Origin: Halarcobacter sp.
GTDB taxonomy: Bacteria > Campylobacterota > Campylobacteria > Campylobacterales > Arcobacteraceae
Direction of reading: 5' to 3'
Assembly (NCBI GenBank): GCA_963676565.1
Contig: OY781089.1
Location: 2,944,001 to 3,008,000 of the forward strand
DNA: 64,000 nucleotides
The translations under genes and the position numbers were made by a program. The notes under the pieces are model-generated. The model was given only the letters and a program-made list of their open reading frames with translations. It was not told where the DNA came from and did no database searches. How positions within the stretch are numbered: position 1 is the first letter of the stretch; each line of letters opens with the position of its first letter. This document shows, piece by piece, positions 6,343 to 64,000 of the stretch.

Positions 6343-7608
6343 TTGGAATACTTAAAGATTAATGGTGAATCAAAACTAACTGGTGAGGTTGAAATCTCTG
6401 GAGCAAAAAACGCTGCATTACCCCTAATAGCAGCAACAATTTTAGCAAAAAATGAAATTAGCATTTGTAATATGCCTAATGTTGTTGATATTAATACATT
6501 ATTAAAACTTATTGATAAACTTGGTGGAACTTTCAAAAAAGAAGAAACATGTATCAAAATTGATACTTCTAAACTAAGTAAAACAACTGCAACATACGAT
6601 ATTGTAAAAACTATGAGAGCCTCAATTTTAGTTCTAGGACCTATTTTAGCTAGATTTGGTCATTGTGAAGTTTCACTTCCAGGTGGTTGTGCAATTGGCC
6701 AAAGACCAGTAGATTTACACCTAAAAGCACTTGAAGCAATGGGCGCACAAATAAAAATAAATCATGGATATATTGAAGCTACTGCTCCTAATGGTCTGAA
6801 AGGAACAAAAATTGTATTCGATAAAGTTACTGTTGGTGGAACTGAGAATACTGTAATGGCTGCAGCTTTAGCAGATGGTGTTACAACTATTATAAATGCG
6901 GCAAAAGAGCCTGAAGTTCAACAACTTTGTGAAGTTATAAGAGATGCTGGGGTTTTAATAGAAGGAATAGGAACTGATACTTTAATTATTCACGGAACAA
7001 ATAGAAAACTTTTAGAGTTTAAAGATTTTGATGTTATTCCAGATAGAATTGAAGCAGGAACGTACCTTTGTGCAGCAGCAATTACAAATTCGAAACTAAA
7101 AATAAGTAAGGTTAATCCTATTCACCTTGAAGCGATACTTTCAAAACTTGAAGAGATGAACTTTGAACTTATTCAAGATGAAACGTCAATAACTGTATTA
7201 CCAACAGATGAGATTAAACCTGTAAATATTGTAACAAGAGAATATCCAGGTTTCCCAACAGATATGCAAGCTCAATTTATGGCATTGGCAACTCAAGCAA
7301 ATGGTACAAGTACAATTGATGAGAGACTATTTGAAAATAGATTTATGCATGTTAGTGAGTTACTAAGACTTGGTGCAGATATCCATTTAAATGGAAATAT
7401 AGCAACAATTAATGGAAAAGCTAATTCACTTAATGGAACTGATGTTATGGCTACAGATTTAAGAGCTTCATCAGCATTGGTTTTATCAGCTTTAGTAGCA
7501 AAGGGAGAAACATCAATTCACAGAATCTATCACCTAGATAGAGGATATGAAGATTTAGAAGGAAAATTAAATCAAATTGGTGCAAAAGTTGATAGGTTTA
7601 ATGAATAG
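6343..7608 (+). CDS. murA: UDP-GlcNAc 1-carboxyvinyltransferase (housekeeping copy)
   Basis: [52 protein letters not shown]. Confidence 0.97.
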
Positions 7609-8753: not shown

Positions 8754-8761
8754 GGATACAA

Positions 8762-9382
8762 ATGTTTCTTGATTTCAAGTTTGTATTTTTTGGTTCTTTA
8801 ATAACCTTAAGCTTAATACCTTTGTATATCTATAGAAAAGAGATATACAAAAGGTTTTCAAAAAAAGGGAATCTAAAAGTATTTATAAAAGATTTAAATG
8901 CCTATTTGACATATAACTATCCAAAAATAAACTTTAATTTTGATATTGTTGAAAAACTTGATGAAAAAGACTTACTAAAAACAAAACAAATTTTGATTAT
9001 CGAAGATTTAACCAGACAATTTGTATACTTTGAATATGAACTTAGTACGCAAAAAAGTGTATCTAAAGAGAAACTTTGGAGTTCATACGATCAAAATTCT
9101 ACTTTACATAAAGATAATAAATTTCCTGTAGATTGGCCTCAAAGAAAAGAAGCTGCATGGAATAGAGAAGAAGGTAAATGTAATAGATGTGGTACTAAAA
9201 CTAAGCTTGTAGATGCAAATGCTCTACTTGCTAAACAGATGAAAAATGGTGGTGGCTTTAATCTTGAAAATGTTGTAATCTTATGTAATGATTGTGCGAG
9301 AATTATAAAATCTCAAAATTTAGAAAAAACAAAAAAAGATTTAAACTTTTTAGATAAACTTATGAAAAAAGTTTCATACTAG
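8762..9382 (+). CDS. Membrane-anchored HNH-fold protein (degenerate active site)
   Basis: N-terminal TM; CNRC...GGGFNLENVVILCNDC Zn-finger/HNH layout. Confidence 0.7.
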   Translation: MFLDFKFVFFGSLITLSLIPLYIYRKEIYKRFSKKGNLKVFIKDLNAYLTYNYPKINFNFDIVEKLDEKDLLKTKQILIIEDLTRQFVYFEYELSTQKSVSKEKLWSSYDQNSTLHKDNKFPVDWPQRKEAAWNREEGKCNRCGTKTKLVDANALLAKQMKNGGGFNLENVVILCNDCARIIKSQNLEKTKKDLNFLDKLMKKVSY

Positions 9383-46500: not shown

Positions 46501-49500
46501 TCAACATAAAGATTAACAGTCCCATTTTCAAATACCATTTGGATATCATAATCTATCCCTGCAGAAAAGCTAAAGTCCGAATAAAAATGTTCATAACTAT
46601 CTCCCATTTGGAATAGTAAAGACTGATTATAAACAGGATGATTACTAATTGCAATATATGGTGCTGCTATGTACCCTGAATTTGGAGGAAAACCTTCACC
46701 TTGATATATTATTGGTGTATTTTGTGTTACTGCTGAGTCAAGGTTTAAAGTAAATGAAATTGTAAAACCATTTGGTGTTCCTTCAAATGGAATATGACCA
46801 ATATCTGAACCAGCTGATTGTAAATCATCTAAATTATTTAAGTTAATATTCTCTACTACTGGTTGGTCATTTGTTCCTGTGATTGTAAATGTGATAGTTT
46901 TATGTTCAGATTCAGAAGTTTCATTAATCCCATCGGTTCCGTCTTTTCCTTGATTATCTAATGCATAGTATTCTACTTCTACTGTTACAGTTTCACCTAC
47001 TGCTAATTCTGTAAAATCTCCACCTATGCTATATGTTCCATCTGGATTTATAGTAATATCTAAATCATCCAAGGTGATTATTTCATTGTTATCTGAATCT
47101 ACTGGACTATCTATTACTGTTATTCCATTTTCTGCTACATGGAAGGTATGTGTATCATTTACATCATCATCACTTACTGTTAATTTCCCAGTGAAAATAT
47201 TGTTCCCATCTTCATCTAACAGTACTCCGTTTTGGTTTGTATCTGCTGAGTCATCATCGTTTGTTTCGTAAACTATATCATTTGCCAACTCATCTTCTAC
47301 AGTATTATTTATATATATTTTTGCAGCTTCAATAAAATCTTGGAAACTAGAATCATCATATAACCAATTTGGATCAAAATAAGCCATCAATGGCATTGTA
47401 GAATAAATAACTGTTCCTGAACCATATTCATAAGAGAAAGCTACAACTTCATTACCATTTCCAGAAGTTAATAAAATTTTAGCTCCATCAGGTAAAGAAC
47501 TACTTTCAAAAGCCCCATGAATTGATGAACTTCCACCATCTAATGAAGAATCATCTAAATTTCCCAATGTACCATTCGACAATTCAACACCATCAGGACC
47601 AATATTAACATCAGCATTACTGTAAGACGAACTTACTAAAGTCTGTGTCAAACCAGGAAGAATAGAATTTGCTTCATATGGACTTCCGTCATTTATAATT
47701 AAAGTCATCCCATTATAAACTGAACTATGTATTGAAGCCAAATTATTTGTAAACTCAGAATTAGAACTATATTTATCAATATATAAAATATTTAGACTTT
47801 CAATATCTTGCGCTGTTAAATCATCTAAATCTTTTGATGAAAATCCACCTAATGATAATATCTCCTCTTGAATAACAGTTCCTGAACCTTCTGCCATATC
47901 ATAATAACCAACTAATCCCGACGAAACAAATTGATTAGGAATATCTGAAATTCCACTATTACTACCATTTAAATCCAAATTTTCTACTACTGGTTGGTCA
48001 TTTGTTCCTGTGATTGTAAATGTGATAGTTTTATGTTCAGATTCTTCTGGTTCATTGTTTACATCACCTAACCCTGCTCCACTATCATCTACTGCATAGT
48101 ATTCTATAGTTACAGTTGCAGTTTCTCCTACAGCTAATGAAGTAAAATCGCCACCTAAAGAATATGTACCATCAGTATTAATTGTTAAATCTAAATCAAT
48201 ATCATCTATTGATAATGTTGAATCATCAGCTAAATTTCCAAGTTCAAGATTTACTAACATTGGTTCTTGATCTGTTCCAATATTGTAGTTTCCTTCTTCT
48301 AAACTTGCCATAAAGAACTCATGAGTGTCATTATCGTCATCATCAGTTACTGTTAAAGTCCCTTCAAAAAGATTGTTAACTTCATCATCTCTTAATATTT
48401 CATTTCCATTTGTATCCTGAGAATCTACATCGATTGTTTCATAGACAACTTTTTTTCCTGAACCTAATGAATATGTAAAGTCATCCATTGCCCAATGTGA
48501 ACCACTTCCATTATCTTCTTGAACATCTGTTCCTGTTGGAGTATTATAAACTATTAATTGGTCTATATTATCCCAATTTAATTCGATTAATGTTGGTCCA
48601 TTATAATTTATTTCAATAGAATCAGAAGTATAAATAAGTTGACCGTTTAAATAACCTTCAAAAACTACATCTTGAGTTGTATACCAAGAAGATGTCATGT
48701 ATGTAGATTCAAAGGTAACAACTTCAGTAAAAGAAAAAGAAATTGGTGAAACTCCATTAGCATTATAAGCCACATTATCTCCACTAACTATACCGTTAAA
48801 ATATCCACTTGACGTAAGGTTGCTTCCATCTAGAACATATAAATTACTATCGTAAATAATTGAATCATCATCATTTTGATTTAATTCATCTTCAAAATCT
48901 TGAACTACTTGATCTTCACCTGAACCATTCAAATTCACATCAGTTACAACTGGAATATCATTTGTACCTTCAACTGTTAGAGTTACTGTTGCAATATTAC
49001 TTGTTGCACCTTCGATATCAGTAGCAAAATAATCAAAACTTACAGTTGCATATTCTCTTAAACCTAAGTCATTAAAATCACCACTAATTTCAAATGTTCC
49101 ATCTGGATTTAAAACTACTAATATATCATCATCTAGAACTGTAATCACACCATTTTCAGTTCCATCTTCATTGTAACTTGTAACAACAAGAGAACCTTCT
49201 ATTGGAGTAAATGTATGAAGTCCAATATCTTCTTCATCTTCATCAAATACAGTTAAAGTACCAGTTATGATATTTTTATCCCCAGCTCCTTCTTCTCCTA
49301 ATACTTCAATATCTTCTAAAGAAACATCAAATACTACTGGAGCAAAGTTTCCTATAATTGCGGCTGTAGGATCAAAAGTTCCTGCACCAGGAAGTCCATT
49401 TAATCTACCTGCTGTATCATCACTATTTGTACCATCTAAATCACCAGCACCTGCTGGATTGGCTGTTTGGTCTGAACCTGTTGGTGCTCCACCAGCTGCT

Positions 49501-49838: not shown

Positions 49839-49873
49839 GATAACTCCCTTTGAATTCAGTTTTATATAATACA

Positions 49874-49906
49874 AGTCTACTAGTAGAAAGTCTCAAATAA
49901 GTCTCA
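49874..49906 (-). promoter_or_regulatory. Putative adhesin promoter TGAGAC-N5-TGAGAC-N10-TAGACT
   Basis: gtctca at 49890-49895 and 49901-49906; -10-like hexamer at 49879-49874. Confidence 0.6.
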
Positions 49907-50038: not shown

Positions 50039-51073
50039 TTGCAAGAAAAATCAAAAATCTTAGTAACAGGTGGTGCTGGTTATATTGGTTCGCACACACT
50101 TATCTCACTTAGCAATGCAAATTATGGTTTTGTAGTATATGACAATCTTTCAAACTCATCAAAAGAGAGTTTGAAAAGAGTAGAAAAAATTATAAATAAA
50201 TCAATAGATTTTATTGAAGGTGACATAAGAGACAAAGATAAATTACAAGAGGTTTTTGATAAATATAAAATTGATTCAGTTATCCATTTTGCAGGATTAA
50301 AAGCGGTTGGTGAATCTGTAGAAAAACCTTTAAAATATTATGACAACAATGTTTGTGGAACTCAAAAATTGCTTGAAGTGATGCAAAAAAACAATTGTAA
50401 AAAAATAGTTTTTTCATCATCTGCAACTGTTTATGGAGATCCTGCAACTACACCTATAAAAGAAGATTTTCCAGTTGGAGGAACAACAAATCCATATGGA
50501 ACTTCAAAATATATGATTGAAAAAATATTAGAAGACTTATATATAGGTGACAATGAATTTAAAATAGCAATATTAAGATACTTTAACCCCGTTGGAGCGC
50601 ATGAGAGTGGAACCATAGGGGAAGACCCAAATGGTATTCCAAATAACTTGATGCCTTTTATTTCACAAACGGCTGTAGGCAAAAGAGAATTTTTATCTGT
50701 ATTTGGTGGTGATTATAATACCCCTGATGGAACAGGGGTTAGAGACTATATCCATGTTGTTGATTTAGCTGAAGGTCATGTTAAAGCAATAGATTTTTTA
50801 AACTCACAAGATAAAAATACAAAACCACTAATTGTAAATCTTGGAACAGGAAATGGATATTCTGTTTTAGATGTTGTAAAAGCTTTTGAAAAAGCTTCTA
50901 AAAAAGAGATCCCATATAAAATTGTAGATAGACGAGCAGGAGATATTGCTTCATGTTTTGCAGATCCTAGTTTTGCTAAAGAGATTTTAGGATGGGAAGC
51001 TAAAAAAGATATAGAACAAATGTGTGCTGATTCATGGAATTGGCAAAGCCAAAATCCAAACGGATACAACTAA
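50039..51073 (+). CDS. galE: UDP-glucose 4-epimerase
   Basis: [35 protein letters not shown]. Confidence 0.96.
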
Positions 51074-51094: not shown

Positions 51095-51982
51095 ATGAGT
51101 ACACCAAACGGAAAGATTACAAAATGCCTGTTTCCAGCAGCAGGATATGGGACAAGATTTTTGCCAGCAACAAAAGCGATGCCAAAAGAGATGTTGCCAA
51201 TATTGACAAAACCATTAATCCAATATGGTGTAGAAGAAGCGATGGAAGCAGGATGTAATATTATGGCAACAATTACTGGACGAGGTAAAAGAGCTATCAC
51301 AGATCACTTTGATATTTCCTATGAACTTGAACATCAAATAAAAGGAAGTTCTAAAGAAGATCTTCTAAAAGATATTAGAAAGATTATGGAAACTTGTACC
51401 TTCACTTATACTAGACAAAATGAAATGAAAGGTTTAGGTGATGCAATATATAAAGGTAATGTTTTAGTAGGATTTCAAAATCCTTTTGCAGTAATCCTTG
51501 CCGATGACCTTTGTGTAAATCCTGATGGTGATGGTATCTTAAAACAAATGGTAGATTTGTATAATAAATATAAATGTTGTATCGTAGCTTGTATGGAAGT
51601 ACCAAAAGATCAAGTACATAAATATGGTGTAATTGAAGGTAAACCAATGGAAGATGGAGTATATATGGTATCTAATATGGTAGAAAAACCAGATAATGAT
51701 AAAGCACCATCTAATTTAGCTGTAATAGGAAGATATATCTTAACTCCAGAAATCTTTGAAATAATAGAGAATACAAAACCAGGAAAAAATGGAGAATTGC
51801 AAATAACAGATTCTTTATGTGAACAAGCAAAAAAAGGTATGGTATTAGCTTATAAATTCAAAGGAAGAAGATTTGATTGTGGTTCTGTAGAAGGTTTTGT
51901 GGAAGCTACTAATTATTTTTATGAACTTGAAAAGAAAAAAGAACAAGAACAAACTAAACCAAAAAAAGAAACTAAAAAATAA
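51095..51982 (+). CDS. galU: UTP-glucose-1-phosphate uridylyltransferase
   Basis: PAAGYGTRFLPATKAMPKEMLP, VEKP, GELQITD. Confidence 0.96.
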   Translation: MSTPNGKITKCLFPAAGYGTRFLPATKAMPKEMLPILTKPLIQYGVEEAMEAGCNIMATITGRGKRAITDHFDISYELEHQIKGSSKEDLLKDIRKIMETCTFTYTRQNEMKGLGDAIYKGNVLVGFQNPFAVILADDLCVNPDGDGILKQMVDLYNKYKCCIVACMEVPKDQVHKYGVIEGKPMEDGVYMVSNMVEKPDNDKAPSNLAVIGRYILTPEIFEIIENTKPGKNGELQITDSLCEQAKKGMVLAYKFKGRRFDCGSVEGFVEATNYFYELEKKKEQEQTKPKKETKK

Positions 51983-52072: not shown

Positions 52073-53299
52073 ATGAACATAGCAATAGCAGGGACAGGGT
52101 ATGTAGGACTGTCAAATGGACTACTACTTTCTCAACATAATGATGTAATAGCTTTAGATATTATCCCAGAAAAAGTTGAGATGATAAACAATGGAATTAG
52201 TCCTATTGAAGACAAAGAGATTCAAGAATATTTAACTAAAATACATGGAAATCCTGAGTCATTTGAAGGAAGTTTTAAAGCTACTTTAGACAAAGAAGAA
52301 GCTTATAAAAATGCTGACTATGTAATAATCTCTACACCAACAGATTATGACCCTGAAACAAACTATTTTAATACAAAATCTATTGAGTATGTTATTGCTG
52401 ATGTTTTAGAAATAAATCCTAATACTACTATGGTAATAAAATCAACTATTCCTGTTGGATATACCAAAGGTATAAACGAAAGATTTAATACATCTAACAT
52501 AATCTTCTCACCAGAGTTCTTAAGAGAAGGGAAAGCTTTATTTGACAATTTATATCCATCTAGAATAATAGTTGGAGAACAATCTGAGAGAGCTACTATA
52601 TTTGCAAAGCTTTTAGAGCAAGGAGCTTTAAAAGAGAACATTGATATATTATTTACTAATTCAACAGAAGCAGAAGCAGTTAAACTATTTTCAAATACAT
52701 ATTTAGCTATGAGAGTAGCTTACTTTAATGAGTTAGATTCATATGCAGAAGCACACGATTTAGATAGTAAGCAAATAATAGAAGGTGTTGGATTAGATCC
52801 AAGAATTGGAAGTCATTATAATAATCCTAGTTTTGGATATGGTGGATATTGTTTACCAAAGGATACTAAGCAATTACTTGCAAACTACAAAGATGTACCA
52901 TCAAATATAATAGAAGCAATTGTAAATGCTAACTCAACAAGAAAAGACTTTGTAGCAAACTCTATAATAGAAAAGTTAAATCTTACTTCTGAAAATCCAG
53001 ACAATCTACATACACAAAAAACAGTTGGTATATATAGACTTGTTATGAAAACAGGATCAGACAACTTTAGAAGTTCAGCTATACAAGGAATAATGAAAAG
53101 AATAAAAGCAAAAGGTATTCCTGTAGTAATCTATGAGCCAAATTTAGACGAAGATGATTTTTTTAATTCAAAGGTTATAAAAGACTTTGAAGAATTCAAA
53201 AAATTATCAAATGTGATAGTTGCAAACAGGCTTGATGAAAATCTTTCTTGTGTTAAAGACAAAGTCTACACTAGAGATTTATTTAGTAGTGATGATTAG
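52073..53299 (+). CDS. ugd: UDP-glucose 6-dehydrogenase, copy 1
   Basis: [24 protein letters not shown]. Confidence 0.95.
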
Positions 53300-53308
53300 G
53301 AAGACAAA

Positions 53309-53767
53309 ATGCAAGAACTAAAAAAAGAGATACTAAAATCAATAGTACCAAGAGCAGTATTATTTCCTATGAATGAAAAAGCAAAGGCATCTATTGCAAA
53401 TGAAAAGCTTATCTCTATCACAAGATTCCCTTATAAAATAGGAAGAGAATCAAGAATTAGTAAAAACGAAAGAGGTTTCTTTGTAAAGCTTAGACTTTTT
53501 GATGAAAACACTACACCTAACAATGACATATATCTTATAGACAATGACGAACTTCTACAAATATCAAAAGAGCATTTAGAAATATCAATAGAAAACAATA
53601 GTTTCTTTGTGATAGATAGAGGAAGTATGAATGGTACAACTATCAATAATGAAACTATCGGTGGAAACAGAAAAATCACAAAAAAAGAGATCAAAGATGG
53701 AGATAGAATCAAAATTGGTTCAAAAGAATCATCTTATGAGTTTCAATTTTTAATTTTAGAAATCTAA
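53309..53767 (+). CDS. Stand-alone FHA domain protein
   Basis: IGR, ISKEH, DRGSMNGT, DGDRIKIG. Confidence 0.9.
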   Translation: MQELKKEILKSIVPRAVLFPMNEKAKASIANEKLISITRFPYKIGRESRISKNERGFFVKLRLFDENTTPNNDIYLIDNDELLQISKEHLEISIENNSFFVIDRGSMNGTTINNETIGGNRKITKKEIKDGDRIKIGSKESSYEFQFLILEI

Positions 53768-53979: not shown

Positions 53980-55206
53980 ATGAACATAGCAATAGCAGGG
54001 ACAGGATATGTAGGACTGTCAAATGGACTACTACTTTCTCAACATAATGATGTAATAGCTTTAGATATTATCCCAGAAAAAGTTGAGATGATAAACAATG
54101 GAATTAGTCCTATTGAAGATAAAGAGATTCAAGAGTATTTAACTAAAATACATGAAAACCCTGATTCATTTGAAGGAAGTTTTAAAGCTACTTTAGACAA
54201 AGAAGAAGCTTATAAAAATGCTGACTATGTAATTATCTCTACACCAACAGATTATGACCCTGAAACAAACTATTTTAATACAAAATCTATTGAGTATGTT
54301 ATTGCTGATGTTTTAGAAATAAATCCTAATACTACTATGGTAATAAAATCAACTATTCCTGTTGGATATACAAAAGGCATAAACGAAAGATTTAATACAT
54401 CTAACATAATCTTCTCACCAGAATTTTTAAGAGAAGGAAAAGCTTTATTTGACAATTTATATCCAAGTAGAATAATAGTTGGAGAACAATCTGAGAGAGC
54501 TACTATATTTGCAAAGCTTTTAGAGCAAGGAGCTTTAAAAAAGAACATTGATATATTATTTACTAATTCAACAGAAGCAGAAGCAGTTAAGCTTTTTTCA
54601 AATACATATCTAGCTATGAGAGTAGCTTATTTTAATGAATTAGATTCATATGCAGAAGCACATGATTTAGACAGTAAGCAAATCATTGAAGGGGTTGGAT
54701 TAGATCCAAGAATTGGAAGTCATTATAATAATCCTAGTTTTGGATATGGAGGTTATTGTTTACCTAAAGATACAAAACAATTACTTGCAAACTACAAAGA
54801 TGTACCATCAAATATAATAGAAGCAATTGTAAATGCTAACTCAACTAGAAAAGACTTTGTATCAAACTCTATAATAGAGAAGCTAAATCTTACTTCTGAA
54901 AATCCAGATAATCTACATACACAAAAAACAGTTGGTATATATAGACTTGTAATGAAAACTGGATCAGACAACTTTAGAAGTTCAGCTATACAAGGGATAA
55001 TGAAAAGAATAAAAGCAAAAGGTATTCCTGTAGTAATATATGAACCAAATTTAGACGAAGATGATTTCTTTAATTCAAAGGTTATAAAAGACTTTGAAGA
55101 ATTCAAAAAATTATCAAATGTGATAGTTGCAAACAGGCTTGATGAAAATCTTTCTTGTGTTAAAGACAAGGTTTATACTAGAGATTTATTTAGTAGTGAT
55201 GATTAA
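53980..55206 (+). CDS. ugd: UDP-glucose 6-dehydrogenase, copy 2
   Basis: Same length as copy 1, four amino-acid differences seen. Confidence 0.95.
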
Positions 55207-56082
55207 ATGAAAATATTAGAAATTAATCTAACAAGGAAAGCTAATATAAGAACAAAATCTTATGCCAAATATTATTGTGAAATTAATTCTATTCAAGATA
55301 TAGAATTTATTTTAGAATTTTCAAAAAAAGAAAACCTAGAAATTCAAATTCTTGGAGATGGAACCAATATTTTGTTTAGTAAAGAATACTATCATAATGT
55401 TATATTTATAAAACTCAAAGATTCATTCAATTATTTTAGAATAACAGATAAAACTGTAGAAATAGGTGCTTCACATTCTCTTATGAAAGCTGGTAAACTT
55501 TTATCTAAAAATGGATATGAAAACTTCATATACATGTCTTTGATCCCTGGTTCATTAGGTGGTGCAGTTAGACAAAATGCAGGTACTACAAAAGAAGGAG
55601 AAATCAAAGATTCTTTTATTTCATGTATTGTTTATGACTTAAAAGAAAAAAAAGAAAAAGAATTATTAATTGAAGATATGAAATTTTCTTATAGAAATTC
55701 AATTATTCAACAAGAAAAGAATAGATATTTAGTTTTATCTGCAAAGTTTAAATTAGAGAATAAAACAACTAATTTAATTGAGCTTAAAGAATTCATCAAA
55801 ACTAAACAAAAAGCCAAAATCAATAAAGAACCTAAAGGATATACTTTTGGTTCAACTTTCAAAAGTCATTTACAAGAAAAACCCGCTTGGTGGTATATAG
55901 ATCAAGTGGGATTGAAAAATAGTATTATTGGTGGAGCAAAAATTTCTGAAATTCATGCAAACTGGATTGTTAACTATAATAATGCATCTGCATCAGATAT
56001 AATTGAACTAATTAAAAAAATTAAATCTAAAGTTAAAAAAAACTTCGATATTGAACTTATTGAAGAAGTCGAAATCATATAA
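55207..56082 (+). CDS. murB: MurB-like UDP-enolpyruvyl-sugar reductase (polysaccharide-locus paralogue)
   Basis: LGDGTNILF, IPGSLGGAVRQNAG, FSYRNS, FGSTFK, HANWIVN, EEV. Confidence 0.88.
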   Translation: MKILEINLTRKANIRTKSYAKYYCEINSIQDIEFILEFSKKENLEIQILGDGTNILFSKEYYHNVIFIKLKDSFNYFRITDKTVEIGASHSLMKAGKLLSKNGYENFIYMSLIPGSLGGAVRQNAGTTKEGEIKDSFISCIVYDLKEKKEKELLIEDMKFSYRNSIIQQEKNRYLVLSAKFKLENKTTNLIELKEFIKTKQKAKINKEPKGYTFGSTFKSHLQEKPAWWYIDQVGLKNSIIGGAKISEIHANWIVNYNNASASDIIELIKKIKSKVKKNFDIELIEEVEII

Positions 56083-56093
56083 AAAGGTTAAAA

Positions 56094-57371
56094 ATGAGTT
56101 ATAAAATGTATGTTAATGGTCCTCAAATACCAAATGGAAAAGTAAAAGTAAGTGGAGCTAAAAATTCTGCCACAAGACTTTTGGCAGCTTCAACTTTAAC
56201 TGATGAAATAGTAAGAATTGACAATTTTCCAACACAGCTTGTAGATGCTGAAGCAAAAATTGATTTTTTAAGAAGTATGAACGTGAAAATAAAAAAAGAT
56301 GATGATAATGCTTCATTAGAAATTCTATCAAAAAAATTATCTTTAAATGATTCGGTAAATTATAATTTACCTATTAGAACAACTTATTTATTGGCTGCAG
56401 GGCAAATTGTTAGACATAAATTAGCTCATATTCCTTATCCAGGGGGTTGTAAAATTGGTTCAAGAGGATATGATCTTCATATTATGGTTTGGAAAGATTT
56501 GGGATGTTTAGTAGAAGAGAAAGAAGACTACATAGAAATTAAAGGTTCATTTAAAGGTGGTACAATTAATTTTCCTATTTCTACTGTTGGTGGTACAGAA
56601 ACAGCTATTATGTGTGCTAGTGTTGCAGAAGGAATTACAGAAATAAATAATGCGTATATAACTCCTGAAATAGATGATTTAATCAATTTTATGACAAAAA
56701 TGGGAGCTAAAATACAAAAATTTGGAACTGGAAAATTAAAGATTGAAGGAGTTAGTGGACTACTAAAAGGAACATCTTATAGCGTAATGGCAGATAGAAT
56801 TGAAGCAATAACTTGGGTAATTTTTGCTGCAATTACAAAAGGAAGTATAGTTGTAGAAAATGTACCATTTGATACAATGGAAATTCCATTACTTCATTTA
56901 AAAGATTGTGGTATTGATTTTTATCAAAATGAAAATTCTATTTTTATGACGCCTGAATGCGTGAAAGGTGGCTTTATTCAACCATTTGAAGTTGCTTGTG
57001 GAACTCATCCAGGTGTAATTTCAGACATGCAAGCCTTTTATGTTTTACTTGGAATGATTGCGGAAGGTAAATCTGTGATATTTGACTATAGATATCCTGA
57101 AAGAATAGCTTATGGAAATGAGCTTAACAAGTTTACAGATGATAAGATACAAGTAGAACATGGAAAAATAATTACAAATGGTACCTTTAAAATTAATTCA
57201 GCAAATGTTTTATCAACTGACTTAAGAGGCAGTATGGGTTTAATAATGGCCGCATTTTTAGCAAATGGAACTTCTGAAATAAAAGATATACAAATGGCAA
57301 TGAGAGGTTATAATAAGCTTGAAGAAAAACTTAGAGATCTTGGGTTAAATTTTGTTATAAAAAAAGATTAG
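56094..57371 (+). CDS. murA: MurA-like enolpyruvyl transferase (divergent polysaccharide-locus paralogue)
   Basis: SGAKNSA, PGGCKIGSR, TVGGTE, DRIEA, HPGVISDMQ, TDLRG, RGY. Confidence 0.9.
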   Translation: MSYKMYVNGPQIPNGKVKVSGAKNSATRLLAASTLTDEIVRIDNFPTQLVDAEAKIDFLRSMNVKIKKDDDNASLEILSKKLSLNDSVNYNLPIRTTYLLAAGQIVRHKLAHIPYPGGCKIGSRGYDLHIMVWKDLGCLVEEKEDYIEIKGSFKGGTINFPISTVGGTETAIMCASVAEGITEINNAYITPEIDDLINFMTKMGAKIQKFGTGKLKIEGVSGLLKGTSYSVMADRIEAITWVIFAAITKGSIVVENVPFDTMEIPLLHLKDCGIDFYQNENSIFMTPECVKGGFIQPFEVACGTHPGVISDMQAFYVLLGMIAEGKSVIFDYRYPERIAYGNELNKFTDDKIQVEHGKIITNGTFKINSANVLSTDLRGSMGLIMAAFLANGTSEIKDIQMAMRGYNKLEEKLRDLGLNFVIKKD

Positions 57372-57382
57372 TTAACTAACTC

Positions 57383-58624
57383 ATGCTTAAATTATTTCAA
57401 AATCAATTTATAAAACATTTTTTTAGTACAAGCGTATTAAAACTTTTTTCTATATTTTTATCTTTTCTTCAAGGGATAATAATAGCTAGGTATCTACTTC
57501 CAGAAGGAAGAGGTATTATAGCTATTTATCTAGCAGTAGTAAACATGCTATTACCCCTAAGTGAACTTGGAATAAAACAAGCATCAGCATATTATTTATC
57601 AAAAGTTAAGATTGATATAACAAAAATTGTTAATACACAAACAATTACACTTTTAATATCTAGTGTTCTAACTATAATACTTCTATTTATAATATACTCA
57701 ATTCAACAGTTAGATAACTTTTTTATCTTACTTATGATTTTCATATCTATTCCTCTAAGAATTTATGTATCTTTCACAACTGCGTATGGTTTATCATTTA
57801 GAGAAATAAATAAAATTAATATTATACAATTCTTACTAATATTTATTGACTTCATTTTTGTTGTTATATTTTTTGTTGTTTTAAAAATAGATCTTAAATA
57901 CTATTTTGTATCATATTTTTTAGCCTCTTTAGTAGCTTCGATTTATACATTTGTTTGGTTAAAAGTATCTTATAATATCACTTTTATAATAAATATAAAT
58001 GAATACAAAAAAGAGTCATTTAAAATTTTAAAAAAAGGTATAAGTTATGCTTTACCTCTTTTTGTTATTGGACTTAATTATTCACTTGACCTTCTAATTT
58101 TAGATTACTTTGTAAATAAAGACTTAATTGGAATATATGCAGTTGGAGTCACATTAGCAGTTTTAATTTGGCAACTACCTACTATATTAAGTTTTTTAAT
58201 ATTTTCTTATAGTGTTTCTACAAAAGATGAAAAACAATTTTCTTTAAACCTATGGAATAAAACAAAACAACTAATGATTATATTAATTCCTATCTCATTT
58301 CTATTAACACTTTCATTTAAATATTTAATACCATTTATTTATGGAGAAGCATATAGTGAGAGTTTTAATGTTATTTTATACTTAATGCCAGGTGTTTATT
58401 TTATGATAGGATTTAAATTATTAAATGGTGATTTAGCAGCAAGAGGATATCCCCAAATAGCTTTATATATATTTTCAACAGGAATAATAATCAATATACT
58501 ATTAAATATTTTACTAATACCAATTTATGGTATTAATGGTGCTGCTATAGCAAGTTCAATAAGCTATTTATTTTGTAGCATTTATTTTGTTTATGAGTAT
58601 TATAAAATAACAATAAGGAAATAG
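57383..58624 (+). CDS. wzx: Wzx-type oligosaccharide flippase (MOP family)
   Basis: About 12 TM; ARYLLPEGRG, IGIYAVG, LIPIYGINGAAIASSISY. Confidence 0.88.
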   Translation: MLKLFQNQFIKHFFSTSVLKLFSIFLSFLQGIIIARYLLPEGRGIIAIYLAVVNMLLPLSELGIKQASAYYLSKVKIDITKIVNTQTITLLISSVLTIILLFIIYSIQQLDNFFILLMIFISIPLRIYVSFTTAYGLSFREINKINIIQFLLIFIDFIFVVIFFVVLKIDLKYYFVSYFLASLVASIYTFVWLKVSYNITFIININEYKKESFKILKKGISYALPLFVIGLNYSLDLLILDYFVNKDLIGIYAVGVTLAVLIWQLPTILSFLIFSYSVSTKDEKQFSLNLWNKTKQLMIILIPISFLLTLSFKYLIPFIYGEAYSESFNVILYLMPGVYFMIGFKLLNGDLAARGYPQIALYIFSTGIIINILLNILLIPIYGINGAAIASSISYLFCSIYFVYEYYKITIRK

Positions 58625-58631
58625 GATAATA

Positions 58632-59789
58632 ATGATACAAAGTATTAAAACAGTATATATAATAAATGATTATTTTCAACATGGTGGACATGTAAAGAGT
58701 TTTGTTACACAATTTAAAGAAATTAATCCTAAAAATTTTATAATTATATGTTCAACAAATGGTTATATTTTAGAAAATCGAAATAATCTAGAGATACCAA
58801 AAGATAAAATTATAACAATTAATATGTCTAAATTAAGAAGAATACAATTTAATTACAAATTATATACTATCATTAAAAATAATTTAGAAGAAGGAGATAG
58901 ATTAAATATATATTCAATAGAATGTTATTTCTCTTCATTACTTGCAAAATCTTTTTTTGACAATGTTAGTATTTTAAACTTTGTAATGGCTGGGCCAGAA
59001 CCATTTCCAATGTTAAAATCAACAGACATATATATAGCTGTATCAAAAGAACAAAAAGATTATGTTTTAAAAAATACATATAATAAAAATATTGATGAAA
59101 ATAAAGTTAAGATTATAAAAAATAGAATTAAACCATCAATAACTAACATAAATAGAGAATCAAAAGAAAGATATGTATTAGTTGTATCAAGATTTGATAA
59201 AGGCTTAAAAGCATCATTAGATAGAATTCTTTTTATTATTCAAGGATTAGATAAAAAAATACCTATTAAGATTGCAGGTACAGGAGAAATACTAGAGACC
59301 TATAAAAAGTATTTAAAAGATTTCAAAAATATAGAATTTCTAGGATATCGTGATGATATTAATGATTTAAGAATTAATGCATGTGTTGTTTTAGGTATGG
59401 GAAGATCCATTTTAGAATCACTACTAATTGGTAAACCATCAATATTAATTGGTCACAATGGAGTAGAACTACTCGAAGATATAAATTACGTATCTTTTGC
59501 ATCAGATTATAATTTTTCTGGAAGAAAAATAAAAAATGATTTAGATCTTAATATTACTGTATCTAAAATTGAAGATTACTATGAAACTAATTATACATTA
59601 AAACAAGAAATTATAGACTTTATAACTTCTGAGTATTCTATCGATTATTTTGCAGAAAAATATACTATTTTATGTAAAGAAGTCAAATCTACTAATGTTA
59701 CAGTTTATCAAATACTTGAAGAATATATTTATATTTTTTTAACAAGAGTCAAACGTAAAATAAATAGTTTATTATGGAGAAATAAATGA
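58632..59789 (+). CDS. Divergent GT-B (GT4-like) glycosyltransferase
   Basis: HGGH, IAVS, VVSRFD, IAGTG, FLGYRDD, ILESLLIGKP. Confidence 0.75.
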   Translation: MIQSIKTVYIINDYFQHGGHVKSFVTQFKEINPKNFIIICSTNGYILENRNNLEIPKDKIITINMSKLRRIQFNYKLYTIIKNNLEEGDRLNIYSIECYFSSLLAKSFFDNVSILNFVMAGPEPFPMLKSTDIYIAVSKEQKDYVLKNTYNKNIDENKVKIIKNRIKPSITNINRESKERYVLVVSRFDKGLKASLDRILFIIQGLDKKIPIKIAGTGEILETYKKYLKDFKNIEFLGYRDDINDLRINACVVLGMGRSILESLLIGKPSILIGHNGVELLEDINYVSFASDYNFSGRKIKNDLDLNITVSKIEDYYETNYTLKQEIIDFITSEYSIDYFAEKYTILCKEVKSTNVTVYQILEEYIYIFLTRVKRKINSLLWRNK

Positions 59790-60862
59790 ACATACTAATC
59801 ACTGCACCTTCATTAGATACTAAAAAAAATGTAAGTGGTATAGCTTCTGTAGTAAATAATATATTTGAAACTAGTGACTTAAACTATATTCATTTTGAAG
59901 TAGGGAAACAAGATAAAGAGAAACGAAGTATGAAATGGATACTTAAACAATTCATATTACCATTGAACCTTTTTAAAGTCTTCTTATTAAATAAAATTGA
60001 TATTTTTCATCTAAATGCTCCATTAAATGAAATGGGAGTTTTTAGAGACTTTGTATTGCTATTAGTCGCAAAACTTTTCAGAAAAAAAATATTGCTTCAT
60101 TTTCATGGAGGTAAATTTTTAATAACTCCACCTAAAAATAAATTATTTTATAACTTTTTAAAGTTTTATTTTAAAAGAGCTGATATCATAATTACATTAA
60201 GTAAATATGAACAGGATTTAACTATACAACAATATGGAATAAATTCAAATAAGGTAACTTTTTTAGAAAACTGCGTGGTTCCTTTGGACAATAATAATAA
60301 CAAAACTCAAAAAGATAAAGTAAGAGTAATTTTTTTAGGACGAATCGTTGATTCAAAAGGTATACTGCAAATAATAGACGCAATGAAAATACTTTTTTCA
60401 AAAAGAGAAGATTTTGATTTTTATCTTTACGGTACTGGACCTTTAGAAGATACAATAATTAAAGAACTTTCAAGTTTTAAGCATAATTTTAAATATTGTG
60501 GAATTGTATCTGGAGAAGAAAAAGATAAAGCTCTTCAAGATGCAGATATATTTTTGTTGCCATCACTTTATGGAGAAGGGCTCCCTATAGCATTACTTGA
60601 AGCTATGAATTTCAATACTATACCAATTGTAACGGATGATGGTTCTATGTCTGAAGTTATAGAAAATAATATTTCTGGATTTATAGTGGAAAAGGGTAAT
60701 GTAAATAATCTTTTAAAAAGTATAGAGTTATCTATTGAATTAATTAAAAATAATGATTTTAAAGTAAGGCAAAATGCTAAAATTAAAATAAATAAGAGAT
60801 TTAATTGTTTTAATTATTCGAAGAATCTTAAAAAAATTTATTTGGATTTAATTAATGTTTAA
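59786..60862 (+). CDS. GT4 family glycosyltransferase
   Basis: HFHGG, FLGRIVDSKG, DIFLLPSLYGEGLPIALLEAM. Confidence 0.92.
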   Translation: MNILITAPSLDTKKNVSGIASVVNNIFETSDLNYIHFEVGKQDKEKRSMKWILKQFILPLNLFKVFLLNKIDIFHLNAPLNEMGVFRDFVLLLVAKLFRKKILLHFHGGKFLITPPKNKLFYNFLKFYFKRADIIITLSKYEQDLTIQQYGINSNKVTFLENCVVPLDNNNNKTQKDKVRVIFLGRIVDSKGILQIIDAMKILFSKREDFDFYLYGTGPLEDTIIKELSSFKHNFKYCGIVSGEEKDKALQDADIFLLPSLYGEGLPIALLEAMNFNTIPIVTDDGSMSEVIENNISGFIVEKGNVNNLLKSIELSIELIKNNDFKVRQNAKIKINKRFNCFNYSKNLKKIYLDLINV

Positions 60863-62048
60863 TATTTTAAAACATTTTATCTTTTTTACACTTTTTTTTA
60901 TACTTTTTTTTATTGAGACAAAGTACATAGGTGGAGTTAGAATTGCTATTTTATGGAAAGTAGTCTTACTAGGTATAATAATAGTTTATATCGTACTTAA
61001 CAGTAAAGAAAAAATTAAATCCTTTATAGTATTTGGCTATTTATATAGTTTTAAAAATATTATTAGCTACTCTTCTCTTGACTATATTATTTCTACTGTA
61101 GCGGAAGTCTTAAAAAGTTTATATATTCCATTATTTGCACATTTTTTTATACTTTTAAATAAATTAAAGAATTTTGATGTTTATAAATTTTTGCTAGTTT
61201 TAAGTATATATATTATTATTAGTTGTGTTCCATTTTTAGTTGGCATTATAGAATCACCGAACGAAGGTTATGATATGTCTAGATTTGGTCTAAAAGGGTT
61301 TGGTTTTGTTGGAATCTTTGAAAATGCCCATTATGCATCAAATACATTAGCTTTTTGTATTACAATTTTAATTTATCAAATTCAAACTGTTAAACTAAGT
61401 TCAATATTAAAAGTATTTTATATATTGCTTATAATCGTAGCATTAATAGCACTAGTAAAAACATATGCACGTCTTGGATACGCTATGTTATTTGTTTCAG
61501 CATGTTATTTATTATTAGCTAACAAAAGTTTTAAGTTTTATTTAAAGTTAATCATACCAGTTTCAATATTAATTGTAAGTTTCATAGTAGTGTATAATCA
61601 ATCAAAACTATTACAAATGAGAATTAGTGGTGAAAACAAATATTCTAAAGCAAGTTTAGGATCAGGTAGAGGTGACTTTGCGATTCATGCATTGGATAAT
61701 TGGTATAGTGAAGACTTAGATACTTTTTTTGTAGGAATGGGGAAAGAATATGCTATGGATCAGATGGAAAAAGATGTAGGTCTTAGAATATATGCACATA
61801 ATGGATTTATAGATGTACTTCAAATTAATGGCGTTATTGGCGCAGCAATTTTTTTACTTTTTTTTATATATTTAATTAAGTATATAAAGATAAATAAGCA
61901 TCATCCATATTATCAACTATCTTTTTCTATATTTCTTGGTTATGTTATTTCAATGCTTGTTCAAGGAGAAAGATTTTTTTTATCAGATTTAATACTAGCA
62001 GCAAGTATTGCTTTACTAAGTATTGAAACAAAAAAGAAAGTGAAGTAA
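60855..62048 (+). CDS. Wzy polymerase / O-antigen ligase family membrane protein
   Basis: About 10 TM; GIFENAH, TYAR, SGR, AHNGFIDVL motifs. Confidence 0.8.
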   Translation: MFNILKHFIFFTLFFILFFIETKYIGGVRIAILWKVVLLGIIIVYIVLNSKEKIKSFIVFGYLYSFKNIISYSSLDYIISTVAEVLKSLYIPLFAHFFILLNKLKNFDVYKFLLVLSIYIIISCVPFLVGIIESPNEGYDMSRFGLKGFGFVGIFENAHYASNTLAFCITILIYQIQTVKLSSILKVFYILLIIVALIALVKTYARLGYAMLFVSACYLLLANKSFKFYLKLIIPVSILIVSFIVVYNQSKLLQMRISGENKYSKASLGSGRGDFAIHALDNWYSEDLDTFFVGMGKEYAMDQMEKDVGLRIYAHNGFIDVLQINGVIGAAIFLLFFIYLIKYIKINKHHPYYQLSFSIFLGYVISMLVQGERFFLSDLILAASIALLSIETKKKVK

Positions 62049-62049
62049 A

Positions 62050-62811
62050 ATGAAAAAATTAAAAGTAATAAAGTCACAAATCTCTATTGGTTCTTACGAT
62101 AACTTTATAAGCAACATAAATACATTATCAAAAGATAAAACCTCATCATATATTTGTATATCAAATGTACATATGACTATAGAAGCTTATCTTGATAAAA
62201 ATTTTGAAGATATCGTAAACAATGCAGATATAGCTACTCCAGATGGTATGCCTTTAGCAAAGGCTATCAAGTTTATTTATGGAATAAATCAAGATAGAGT
62301 TGCAGGTATGGACTTAATAGAAGATTTATTTAAAGAGTGTGAAAAGAAAGATAAAAAAATCTTTGTTTATGGTGGTGCACAACCTACTTTAGAGAAGATG
62401 GAAGAAAAAGTAAATAAAGAATATCCAAACCTTAAGATAAAATCTTATTCTCCACCTTTTAGAGCATTAAGTCAAGATGAAAAAGAAGCAGATATTTCTA
62501 TGATAAATGACTTCAATCCAGACTTTGTATTTGTAGCTTTAGGATGCCCTAAACAAGAGAAATGGATGAGTGAACATAAAAATAAAATCAACTCATGTAT
62601 GATAGGACTTGGTGGAGCTATTGAAGTTTATGCAGGGGTTAAAGATAGAGCACCAAAGTGGATGCAAGACTATTCATTAGAGTGGCTATATAGATTGATT
62701 CAAGATCCAAAAAGACTCTGGAAAAGATACTTTTTGACGAATAGCTTATTTATATTTTTGTTTATTAAACAATACTTAACATACAAGTTTTCAAGAAAGG
62801 ATATAAAATGA
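62050..62811 (+). CDS. WecG/TagA/CpsF (GT26) glycosyltransferase
   Basis: PDGMPL, RVAGMDL, SPPFR, VALGCPKQEKW, RAPKWMQ, LEWLYRL. Confidence 0.93.
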   Translation: MKKLKVIKSQISIGSYDNFISNINTLSKDKTSSYICISNVHMTIEAYLDKNFEDIVNNADIATPDGMPLAKAIKFIYGINQDRVAGMDLIEDLFKECEKKDKKIFVYGGAQPTLEKMEEKVNKEYPNLKIKSYSPPFRALSQDEKEADISMINDFNPDFVFVALGCPKQEKWMSEHKNKINSCMIGLGGAIEVYAGVKDRAPKWMQDYSLEWLYRLIQDPKRLWKRYFLTNSLFIFLFIKQYLTYKFSRKDIK

Positions 62812-64000
62812 TAGAAAATAATACATCTGAATATCACAAAAAAAGACATCCAAAACTTAGAGAATTTATATCAGAAGTTATAATCTTCATAACTGATATA
62901 TTTGTAATATTTTTTACTCTTTTTTTCAGTTTTATAGTATGTAGATATTTTCAAGGAGAAGATATAGTTTTAAATGATATATTTATATCATGTCTAAAAA
63001 TGTATCCAACATATATCATCATAACATTTTTGTTTTTTTATGAAAGAATATATCTAAATAGATTTGACTTTTGGCACGAGACAAGGAAGATTATCAAGTC
63101 GTTGTTATTGTCCTTTTTTGCAGTTATCACACTAGGAGTAATAATAAATCAGTCACAAAACTATCCAGTAGAGATAATAGCATGTTCTTTTGTTTTTATG
63201 ATGGTTTTTATGCCACTTTCTAAGTTTTTTTTAAAACCATTTTTGTTTAATATAGGTTTTTGGAAAAAAGGGGTTAAGCTTTTAAGTAGTGATGCTCTTT
63301 TCAAAGATGAAATTTTTGGAAACAGATACTTAGGATATATCAAATCAAAAAGAAAAGAAGCTGATATTGTATTTATTGATTCGCATAAAAAAGATCCTGA
63401 AAGACTAAAAATAATATTAGAACAAGAGATTCAATCAAAAGAAAAAGTTATGTTTGTACCAATATTCAATAACTATCAATTTACTAACTCTGATATATAT
63501 GAGCTTACAAATACAAGAACAAATTTAGTAGTTTTAGAAAACAAACTAAAAAGTAAATACAGAATGTTTATAAATAGATCATACAATCTAGTTCTTGCAA
63601 TACTTTTAGCACCATTTCTTATGCCTATAGTTGGAATCATAGCCTTAGCCATAAACCAAGACTCAAAGGGACCAATACTATTCAAACAAAAAAGGCTAGG
63701 AAGAAATGGTAGTATTTTTATGTGCTATAAATTTAGAACCATGTATGAGCAAGAGGAGCAAGAAAGACTTCTAAAAGACTATCTAGAAGAAAACCCACAT
63801 GAGATTGAAAACTATGAGATATATTGTAAATATGAAAATGACCCAAGAGTTACAAAGGTTGGGAACTTTTTAAGAAAAACATCTTTAGATGAACTTGCGC
63901 AGATTTTTAATGTCTTTAAAGGAGAGATGAGCTTTGTAGGACCAAGGCCATATTTAGTTACAGAAAAAGAAAAGATGGGTGAAGCAAATGTTAATACAAT
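62808..64000 (+). CDS. WbaP/WcaJ-type undecaprenyl-phosphate sugar-1-P transferase (runs off right edge)
   Basis: My translation from ATG 62808: N-terminal TMs, then DSKGPILFKQKRLG, YKFRTM, DPRVTKVGNFLRKTSLDEL, GEMSFVGPRP. Confidence 0.92.
   Translation, partial: MIENNTSEYHKKRHPKLREFISEVIIFITDIFVIFFTLFFSFIVCRYFQGEDIVLNDIFISCLKMYPTYIIITFLFFYERIYLNRFDFWHETRKIIKSLLLSFFAVITLGVIINQSQNYPVEIIACSFVFMMVFMPLSKFFLKPFLFNIGFWKKGVKLLSSDALFKDEIFGNRYLGYIKSKRKEADIVFIDSHKKDPERLKIILEQEIQSKEKVMFVPIFNNYQFTNSDIYELTNTRTNLVVLENKLKSKYRMFINRSYNLVLAILLAPFLMPIVGIIALAINQDSKGPILFKQKRLGRNGSIFMCYKFRTMYEQEEQERLLKDYLEENPHEIENYEIYCKYENDPRVTKVGNFLRKTSLDELAQIFNVFKGEMSFVGPRPYLVTEKEKMGEANVNT

Follow-up and report, generated by a model that had tools for sequence, protein, structure and literature searches.

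An accessory MurB-MurA pair in the variable part of a Halarcobacter polysaccharide locus: a candidate route to a lactyl-ether sugar

What could a second pair of MurA- and MurB-like enzymes make when its genes lie in a polysaccharide locus? This question is raised by a stretch of DNA of Halarcobacter sp. (GCA_963676565.1, contig OY781089.1, positions 2,944,001-3,008,000 of the forward strand), referred to here as the window (64,000 nt), in which a murB-like and a murA-like gene, named murB2 and murA2, are located among polysaccharide genes. An additional 18 kb that overlaps and extends beyond the window end (stretch L085) was included to map the rest of the locus. Our results suggest, with a probability of roughly 0.62, that this cassette makes a uridine diphosphate (UDP)-O-(1-carboxyethyl) sugar for the repeat unit of a capsule or exopolysaccharide (EPS), and that it was acquired horizontally. 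Gene content, phylogeny, synteny and residue conservation are the observations from which we infer the chemistry, the acceptor and the incorporation into a polymer. Lactyl-ether sugars are recurrent but rare constituents of O antigens, capsules and commercially used marine EPS.

Both proteins belong to the expected families. MurA2 matched PF00275 over residues 13-413 of 425 (4.3e-57), which corresponds to a full-length two-domain fold of the 5-enolpyruvylshikimate-3-phosphate (EPSP) synthase type, and a phmmer search of the PDB matched 32 distinct MurA chain sequences, with a best E-value of 1.2e-65. Its score was above the cut-off of the broader subfamily model NF006873 (349 versus 297 bits) and below that of the MurA equivalog model TIGR01072 (329.5 versus 392.7 bits). 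MurB2 matched PF01565 (2.5e-10, 40.6 bits) and PF02873 (2e-25, 89.3 bits); it exceeded the cut-off of TIGR00179 (181.1 versus 144.5 bits) and fell below that of the more specific NF010480 (205.6 versus 259 bits). MurB2 was also aligned over 258-275 residues to the MurB structures 4PYT (9.3e-35), 3TX1 and 1HSK (type II MurB). Given that the E-values ranged from 1e-25 to 1e-104 on complete open reading frames (ORFs), these family matches are not due to chance. The ORFs named in the first-pass annotation were all present in our ORF map at the same coordinates, and its MurA2 motifs (SGAKN, PGGCKIGSR, PGVISDMQ, IRTT, YPERI and DLRGS) were all found in the translation. The MurB2 catalytic motifs that it regarded as kept were likewise recovered in register with 4PYT and 3TX1: YR.S (FSYRNS), GS.FK (GSTFK) and a C-terminal Glu (EEVEII). 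Their counterparts in Escherichia coli MurB are R159, S229 and E325, which we take to be the catalytic Arg, Ser and Glu.

The murA2/murB2 pair is supernumerary, as a housekeeping murA (569 bits) and another murB of 259 aa are present in the genome as well. In this genome of one contig (3.34 Mb), two MurB_C matches were found, murB2 and the 259-aa murB at C1:396713-396982, which adjoins topA-like and other genes. The genes with an EPSP fold were three: murA, murA2 and aroA. The canonical murA that had been noticed at 6343-7608 scored 569.1 bits with TIGR01072. The first-pass annotation had also counted a genome with murB2 as its only murB among the arguments against its proposal, which is not the situation here. 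Similar to Halarcobacter sp., all five other carrier genomes tested possessed a housekeeping murA (411-601 bits with TIGR01072) and a second MurB_C gene, and their accessory MurA copies scored 299-350 bits, under the 392.7-bit cut-off.

The phylogenetic position of MurA2 was assessed with a maximum-likelihood tree of 75 rows, consisting of 49 MurA2-type sequences, 20 housekeeping sequences of relatives (including that of the window), five housekeeping sequences of carriers and the AroA of this genome; five duplicate rows (L068-L072) were left out. One branch with a length of 3.25 and a support of 100 in the Shimodaira-Hasegawa-like approximate likelihood ratio test (SH-aLRT) split the 49 MurA2-type from the 25 housekeeping rows, so that MurA2 groups apart from housekeeping MurA, as a recruited enzyme was expected to do. 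The housekeeping murA of the window clustered with murA genes of the same genus. The identities between MurA2 and housekeeping MurA were about 33% (29-36%), and this value together with the separate clade rules out a local duplication of the housekeeping mur genes.

The overall identities within the MurA2 clade ranged from 51 to 80%, and its members came from five phyla. The relatives of MurA2 in the databases were 55-80% identical and all labelled plain MurA; those named were from marine Gammaproteobacteria (Alteromonas, Marinobacter, Halomonas/Vreelandella, Rheinheimera and Vibrio lentus) and others. A scan of species-representative genomes identified 37 MurA2-type loci with identities of 51-59% in Pseudomonadota, Bacteroidota, Verrucomicrobiota and Actinomycetota. 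The 60 relatives searched, of which 24 belong to the genus, 12 to the family and 24 to the order, each gave only one match, the housekeeping gene at 29-36% identity, and no MurA2-type gene; 400 other genomes of the order yielded none either (E<=1e-75). Moreover, in the family of the carrier G061 only one of 200 other genomes contained a MurA2-type gene (E<=1e-100). Judged by this phylogeny and distribution, MurA2 is a member of a distinct accessory clade that is patchily distributed and horizontally transferred.

The murB2 and murA2 genes are coupled between ugd2 and wzx as tightly as first described, with gaps of 0, 11 and 11 bp. The ugd2 stop codon abuts the murB2 ATG with a gap of 0 bp (junction sequence GATTAAATG), the 11 bp between murB2 and murA2 include AAAGG ahead of the murA2 ATG, and another 11 bp separate murA2 from wzx. 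Upstream of ugd2 is an AT-rich gap of 212 bp. The full gene set for a Wzx/Wzy capsule or EPS locus with Wza-Wzc export was found (initiating transferase, Wzx, Wzy, glycosyltransferases, Wza and Wzc), and by its predicted products the locus is a Wzx/Wzy-dependent capsule or EPS locus with Wza-Wzc export.

Comparison with the two closest species (G010 and G014) showed how the pair is set in this locus. The left flank galU-ugd-ugd was common to G010 and G014, and galE was also present in G014. The right flank NTP_transf_5-gmd-fcl-nudix-manC was common to G010, and NTP_transf_5 alone was matched in the stretch compared for G014. Between ugd2 and NTP_transf_5, no homologs of murB2, murA2, wzx, wzy or the transferase were found in either species at 50% coverage, and the only matches in this interval were a 39%-identical GT26 in G010 and a 26%-identical GT4 in G014. 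Thus, with conserved flanks and a differing centre, the pair sits in a variable cassette of the serotype type. The GC content was about 31% in the flanks and 22-29% in the central part. By these comparisons, murA2 and murB2 arrived by horizontal transfer in the serotype-variable part of the locus. The interpretation of the first-pass annotation, a pair recruited from peptidoglycan synthesis, is supported, but not in the sense of an origin from the mur genes of this genome, given the horizontal transfer and the separate clade.

The ugd genes belong to the conserved flank. The ugd1 and ugd2 products shared 404 of 408 residues, and the genes were about 96% identical at the DNA level, from a few bases before the ATG to the stop codon only. 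G010 and G014 also have two ugd copies each, 2.6 and 4.9 kb apart, which indicates that the duplication is older than this species. UDP-glucuronic acid (UDP-GlcA) as the acceptor, suggested by the adjacency of ugd2, was considered and rejected: ugd2 lies in the conserved flank, is found in G010 and G014 without the pair, and a Ugd-family gene was within 8 kb in only 5 of the 37 MurA2-type loci. The coupling of ugd2 with murB2 is therefore a junction that says little on the substrate.

Residues of the active site were compared in an alignment of 49 MurA2-type and 25 housekeeping sequences, with E. coli numbering checked on the alignment of 3KQJ. K22, N23, R91, C115, R120, D123, H125, D305, R331, D369, L370, R371 and R397 were kept in both clades. 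K23, C119, R124, D311, R337, R378 and R404 of MurA2 were conserved at >=90% in both clades; the E. coli equivalents, K22, C115, R120, D305, R331, R371 and R397, are presumably the catalytic residues and those of the phosphoenolpyruvate (PEP) site. The UDP-contact motifs R-x-x-D-L-H and (S/T)-V-G were also kept in MurA2. Eleven ligand-contact residues of E. coli MurA are listed for 1UAE in Table 1 of PMC13750019; relative to that list, eight were identical in MurA2, one was conservatively replaced (S162T) and two were changed (K160I and V327R).

About 20 pocket positions, in contrast to the catalytic residues, carried substitutions that were invariant within the MurA2 clade, among them K160I, V327R and E329P. 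In E. coli numbering, L26-P27 was replaced by T-R, A92-S93-I94 by T-T-Y, P121 by G, P303-T304 by I-S and F328-E329 by Y-P; the S-L before PGGC was replaced by P-Y, A by G379, S by M381 and the H-L before R397 by M-A, each of these positions being invariant or almost invariant in housekeeping MurA. The changed residues that line the pocket of MurA2 were T27, R28, T96, T97, Y98, Y115, I309, S310, R333, Y334, P335, G379 and M381. E329P and F328Y were invariant in all 49 MurA2-type rows. The S. aureus equivalent of E329 is reported to hydrogen-bond UDP-N-acetylglucosamine (UDP-GlcNAc) in a model (PMC13750019), and several of the swapped positions are among the 1UAE pocket residues in the table of a docking study (PMC10816260). 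This pattern suggests that catalysis and the UDP handle were preserved and that the sugar-holding part of the pocket was remodelled. The same remodelling across five phyla points to a single acceptor or regiochemistry that is conserved but not that of housekeeping MurA. The nucleotide handle is very probably UDP as predicted from the retained motifs. The clade-invariant remodelling of the acceptor pocket makes it probable that the sugar or the attacked hydroxyl is not the GlcNAc 3-OH used in peptidoglycan synthesis.

The most probable alternative is that the pair performs the housekeeping reaction, converting UDP-GlcNAc to UDP-N-acetylmuramic acid (UDP-MurNAc; O-3 lactyl ether), and that MurNAc is built into the capsule or EPS. 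MurA2 and MurB2 exceed the NF006873 and TIGR00179 cut-offs, respectively, all catalytic residues and nine of the 11 UDP-GlcNAc contacts are kept or conservatively replaced, no dedicated locus gene would be needed for UDP-GlcNAc, and the lactyl groups of the E. coli O69 and O150 antigens are on GlcNAc (PMC7685785). However, MurA2 (329.5 bits) and all five other accessory copies tested are below the 392.7 bits of TIGR01072. E329, F328, P303-T304, A92-S93-I94 and L26-P27, which are invariant in housekeeping MurA, give way to other residues shared by all 49, or nearly all, MurA2-type sequences, including the position whose S. aureus equivalent contacts UDP-GlcNAc in the model of PMC13750019. In addition, the precursor genes encoded in the locus are those for UDP-Glc, UDP-Gal, UDP-GlcA and guanosine diphosphate (GDP)-Man or a GDP-6-deoxyhexose, and no amino-sugar enzymes were found among the annotated genes of the polysaccharide locus. 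We therefore regard UDP-MurNAc as an unlikely product, and a lactyl ether on another sugar or hydroxyl is preferred.

The neighbourhood survey that the first-pass annotation had called for revealed that synteny of the murA-murB-wzx type recurs in other phyla. In 33 of the 37 loci, the MurA2-type gene is followed downstream on its own strand by a MurB-like ORF, adjacent in 27 and after one gene in six, and this single intervening gene was wzx where annotated. Pfam annotation of 101 ORFs from 10 of the 37 loci, which were picked for taxonomic spread, placed the pair amid genes for Wzx, Wzy, GT2/GT4/GT26, Wza/Wzc, sulfotransferase or lipopolysaccharide (LPS)-core-type proteins in nine of the ten. 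In Ningiella ruwaisensis (L011:10383-12762), an asparagine-synthase-like gene and a sulfotransferase gene come after the pair; an amidotransferase beside a lactyl-sugar pathway could convert the new carboxyl group to an amide or attach an amino acid to it.

The MurB partners were of more than one lineage. In a MurB tree of 54 rows, the first partner clade contained 18 rows of about 320-340 aa from Proteobacteria, Actinomycetota, Verrucomicrobiota and one Bacteroidota locus (support 100), and the second contained 15 Bacteroidota partners of about 285 aa together with one database protein (support 100). The third clade (11 rows, support 99) held MurB2 of the window; its other members were nine database proteins, one of them named for Candidatus Marinimicrobia, and one protein from the metagenome contig L083. 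This contig was the only usable one from a metagenome scan with MurB2, as L084 was an 18-residue match and was disregarded. In L083 (565-2704), a MurB of the MurB2 clade (54% identity) is followed by a different MurA-like gene, whose product was 35% identical to MurA2 and scored 395.5 bits with TIGR01072, just over the 392.7-bit cut-off. The pair of L083 is flanked by a short-chain dehydrogenase/reductase (epimerase/dehydratase) gene and an EpsC/WcaB-like sugar acetyltransferase gene, and by its sequence it represents another kind of accessory MurB-MurA pair, independent of the first. Given the three MurB partner clades and the L083 pair, accessory MurA/MurB pairs in glycan loci were assembled more than once.

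Several results weigh against a dedicated lactyl-sugar cassette. With four MurB queries and E<=1e-3, no MurB-like gene was detected in four of the 37 loci (L006, L013, L026 and L031), of which L006 offered only 1.8 kb downstream; thus the reductase is not always encoded alongside. One of the ten annotated loci, that of the gamma proteobacterium HdN1 (L041), has the pair flanked by nitrite-reductase genes and not by polysaccharide genes. The MurB partners of MurA2-type genes fall in at least three separate clades, MurB2 of the window shares only 22-37% identity with the reductase partners that other MurA2-type genes have, which sets the pairing here apart from the common one, and its murB-first gene order is reversed. 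Furthermore, when the tree is rooted with AroA, the housekeeping clade falls within the MurA2-type rows. The AroA outgroup has a branch length of 10, so the root is unreliable, and we claim the split between the two clades, not its direction. Finally, the remodelling of the pocket is read from sequence alone.

In L041, the pair (7959-10236) lies beside NirB/NirD-like genes and a hydrolase gene, with a Ugd-family gene 3.5 kb off on the other strand. In L013, L026 and L031, the MurA2-type gene has no MurB-like gene in the 8-kb flanks, and in L026 it is directly followed by wzx. In these three, reduction may fall to the housekeeping MurB or to another reductase, or the enolpyruvyl ether may stay as it is.

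Some of these observations would also fit other chemistries: the enolpyruvyl ether might stay unreduced or be converted into a cyclic pyruvate ketal, MurB2 might have another substrate, or the acceptor might be something other than a nucleotide sugar. L013, L026 and L031 combine full flanks and a MurA2-type gene with no MurB-like neighbour, the MurB partners are polyphyletic, and the MurA-like NikO takes another acceptor, uridine monophosphate (UMP), according to PMC6801904. Yet MurA2-type genes keep a MurB-like gene in 33 of the 37 loci, R-x-x-D-L-H and (S/T)-V-G are retained, and the catalytic motifs of MurB2 are aligned with those of known structures, which renders such chemistries improbable. 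That the pair is instead a spare supply of peptidoglycan precursor, redundant or stress-induced like the Gram-positive MurA1/MurA2 and present in a polysaccharide locus by accident, is very improbable: second murA genes with a cell-wall role do exist in Firmicutes and MurA2 keeps the catalytic Cys, but MurA2-type genes were found in none of the 60 relatives and none of the 400 genomes of the order, the pair is part of a variable cassette that recombines, the MurA2 clade turns up again in the polysaccharide loci of other phyla, and MurA2 is phylogenetically apart from housekeeping MurA.

In the preferred reading, a lactyl-ether pathway, MurA2 would move the enolpyruvyl group from PEP onto a UDP-sugar hydroxyl, and MurB2 would reduce the vinyl ether with NADPH through its flavin adenine dinucleotide (FAD) to give a UDP-O-(1-carboxyethyl), i.e., lactyl-ether, sugar. 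A glycosyltransferase of the locus would place this sugar into the repeat unit on undecaprenyl phosphate, which would be begun by the WbaP-type transferase, flipped by Wzx, polymerised by Wzy and exported by Wza/Wzc. The invariant new arginines R28 and R333 could bind a sugar carboxylate. Tentatively, and with somewhat less than even confidence, we suggest that the MurA2 clade has a new specificity, for a UDP-hexose, a UDP-uronic acid or a hydroxyl other than GlcNAc O-3, and forms with swappable MurB-like reductases an uncharacterised mobile route to the lactyl-ether sugars of the glucolactilic- and nosturonic-acid type in marine EPS and O antigens.

The genes that surround the pair are listed in Table 1. 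Past the initiating transferase, the gene order continues with NTP_transf_5, gmd, an fcl-like epimerase/reductase gene, a NUDIX gene, manC and manB, followed by the genes for Wza (Poly_export, PF02563), a Wzc-type tyrosine kinase (PF02706, PF13807 and AAA_31) and a CpsB-type phosphatase. The Wza/Wzc/CpsB genes are 11-15 kb beyond position 62000.

Table 1. Features of the polysaccharide locus and the housekeeping murA, in window coordinates unless another stretch is named
Feature	Position	Strand	Evidence
galE (UDP-glucose 4-epimerase), conserved left flank	50039..51073	+	TIGR01179 456 bits; 96% identity in G014
galU (UTP-glucose-1-phosphate uridylyltransferase), conserved left flank	51095..51982	+	TIGR01099 383.8 bits; 94-95% identity in G010, G014
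ugd1 (UDP-glucose 6-dehydrogenase family)	52073..53299	+	PF03721, PF00984, PF03720; NF011631 637.7 bits (below the 757 cut-off); TIGR03026 327.7 bits
Small FHA-domain protein, 152 aa, between the ugd copies	53309..53767	+	PF00498 8.7e-13
ugd2, near-identical to ugd1; conserved flank, outside the variable cassette	53980..55206	+	404/408 residues the same
murB2, type II MurB-like FAD-dependent enolpyruvyl reductase (predicted), 291 aa, intact	55207..56082	+	PF01565, PF02873, TIGR00179
murA2, MurA-like enolpyruvyl transferase (predicted) of the accessory clade, 425 aa, intact	56094..57371	+	PF00275, NF006873
wzx-type flippase	57383..58624	+	PF01943 1.4e-12, PF13440
Probable glycosyltransferase, weak GT1-type match	58632..59789	+	PF13692 5.3e-5, below cut-off
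GT4 glycosyltransferase	59786..60862	+	PF00534 1e-29
Wzy-type polymerase (Wzy_C)	60855..62048	+	PF04932 9.7e-11
GT26 (WecG/TagA/CpsF family) glycosyltransferase	62050..62811	+	PF03808 1.1e-60
WbaP-type initiating phosphoglycosyl transferase, 456 aa	62808..64000, past window end; full ORF L085:809-2179	+	PF02397, TIGR03022 253 bits
Housekeeping murA, outside the locus, for comparison only	6343..7608	+	TIGR01072 569.1 bits

Two other large ORFs were also noticed. Directly upstream of and divergent from the polysaccharide locus, a giant ORF of 4122 aa occupies positions 37506-49874 (-). Its sole Pfam match was DUF5801, in three stretches, and its product is probably a large repetitive surface protein. 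At L085:15461-17953 (-; genome C1:3021460-3023952), an ORF of at least 830 aa had a weak bMG6 match. Opposite this ORF are five 109-aa ORFs at a spacing of 441 bp, a periodicity that points to tandem repeats of about 147 residues in its product.

Similar to housekeeping MurA (EC 2.5.1.7) and MurB (EC 1.3.1.98), the pair has the same folds and domains (PF00275; PF01565 and PF02873), the catalytic and PEP-site residues, most UDP contacts and, as expected, two steps, enolpyruvyl transfer followed by reduction. Different from them, MurA2 belongs to a separate clade, scores below the MurA equivalog cut-off and carries about 20 pocket swaps, and the pair is supernumerary, patchily distributed, horizontally transferred and located in polysaccharide loci instead of cell-wall loci.

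Lactyl groups of E. coli O antigens are found on Rha (O58), Glc (O124 and O146) and GlcNAc (O69 and O150), according to PMC7685785. In that paper, the 'pyruvyltransferase' gene wfeP is credited with making UDP-glucolactilic acid (UDP-GlcLA), and a frameshift in it turns O124 into O164, which is without the lactyl group. The genes assigned to glucolactilic acid in E. coli O124, Shigella dysenteriae 3 and S. boydii 17 (wfeP and a second gene) resemble the pair in being located in a Wzx/Wzy O-antigen cluster and in their attributed role in making a UDP-lactyl sugar. A blastn search of murB2-murA2 against 5,426 E. coli genomes gave no match, at the nucleotide level only.

In non-thermophilic Campylobacter, a pyruvyl-transferase gene of the pgl operon is linked in a preprint (bioRxiv 10.64898/2026.05.23.727390) to a 234-Da sugar of the N-glycan, for which glucolactilic acid was proposed, and is compared there with MurA. 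This system, of the same order as Halarcobacter, likewise has a MurA-type transferase in a glycan locus that would lead to a lactyl hexose, the identity of the sugar there being a proposal. As no MurA2-type gene was found in the 400 sampled genomes of the order (E<=1e-75), the Campylobacter enzyme is either outside the MurA2 clade or was not sampled. NikO, the MurA-like enolpyruvyl-UMP synthase of nikkomycin biosynthesis, retains the active-site Cys (PMC6801904) and is another MurA-like enolpyruvyl transferase recruited outside the cell wall. However, the substrate of NikO is UMP, its pathway yields an antibiotic and no MurB partner accompanies it, whereas MurA2 is found among polysaccharide genes with a MurB-like partner. 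Lactate groups are also present in marine EPS, among them the Alteromonas 'deepsane' and that of Vibrio alginolyticus with 3-O-lactyl-GlcA, i.e., nosturonic acid (PMC5852497 and PMC5983295). In a literature search whose scope left most subscription journals outside, no biochemically characterised MurA/MurB-like pair from a polysaccharide locus was found, nor any characterised enzyme pair for lactyl-ether sugars.

A MurA/MurB-like pair for a lactyl sugar is an obvious extrapolation from muramic acid and not a new suggestion, which makes the gain incremental. On the sequence evidence, the pair is best filed as an uncharacterised, phylogenetically distinct and mobile MurA subfamily with interchangeable MurB-like reductases. 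Genome annotation labels genes of the MurA2 clade and their partners as ordinary cell-wall murA/murB. Recognising the clade would correct this annotation, which is relevant when essential genes or fosfomycin targets are counted. Moreover, lactyl-ether sugars would gain a genomic marker in a conserved accessory MurA clade that can be told by its sequence, together with a defined enzyme pair, and the MurA2 family is delimited well enough to make the biosynthesis of lactyl-ether sugars directly testable.

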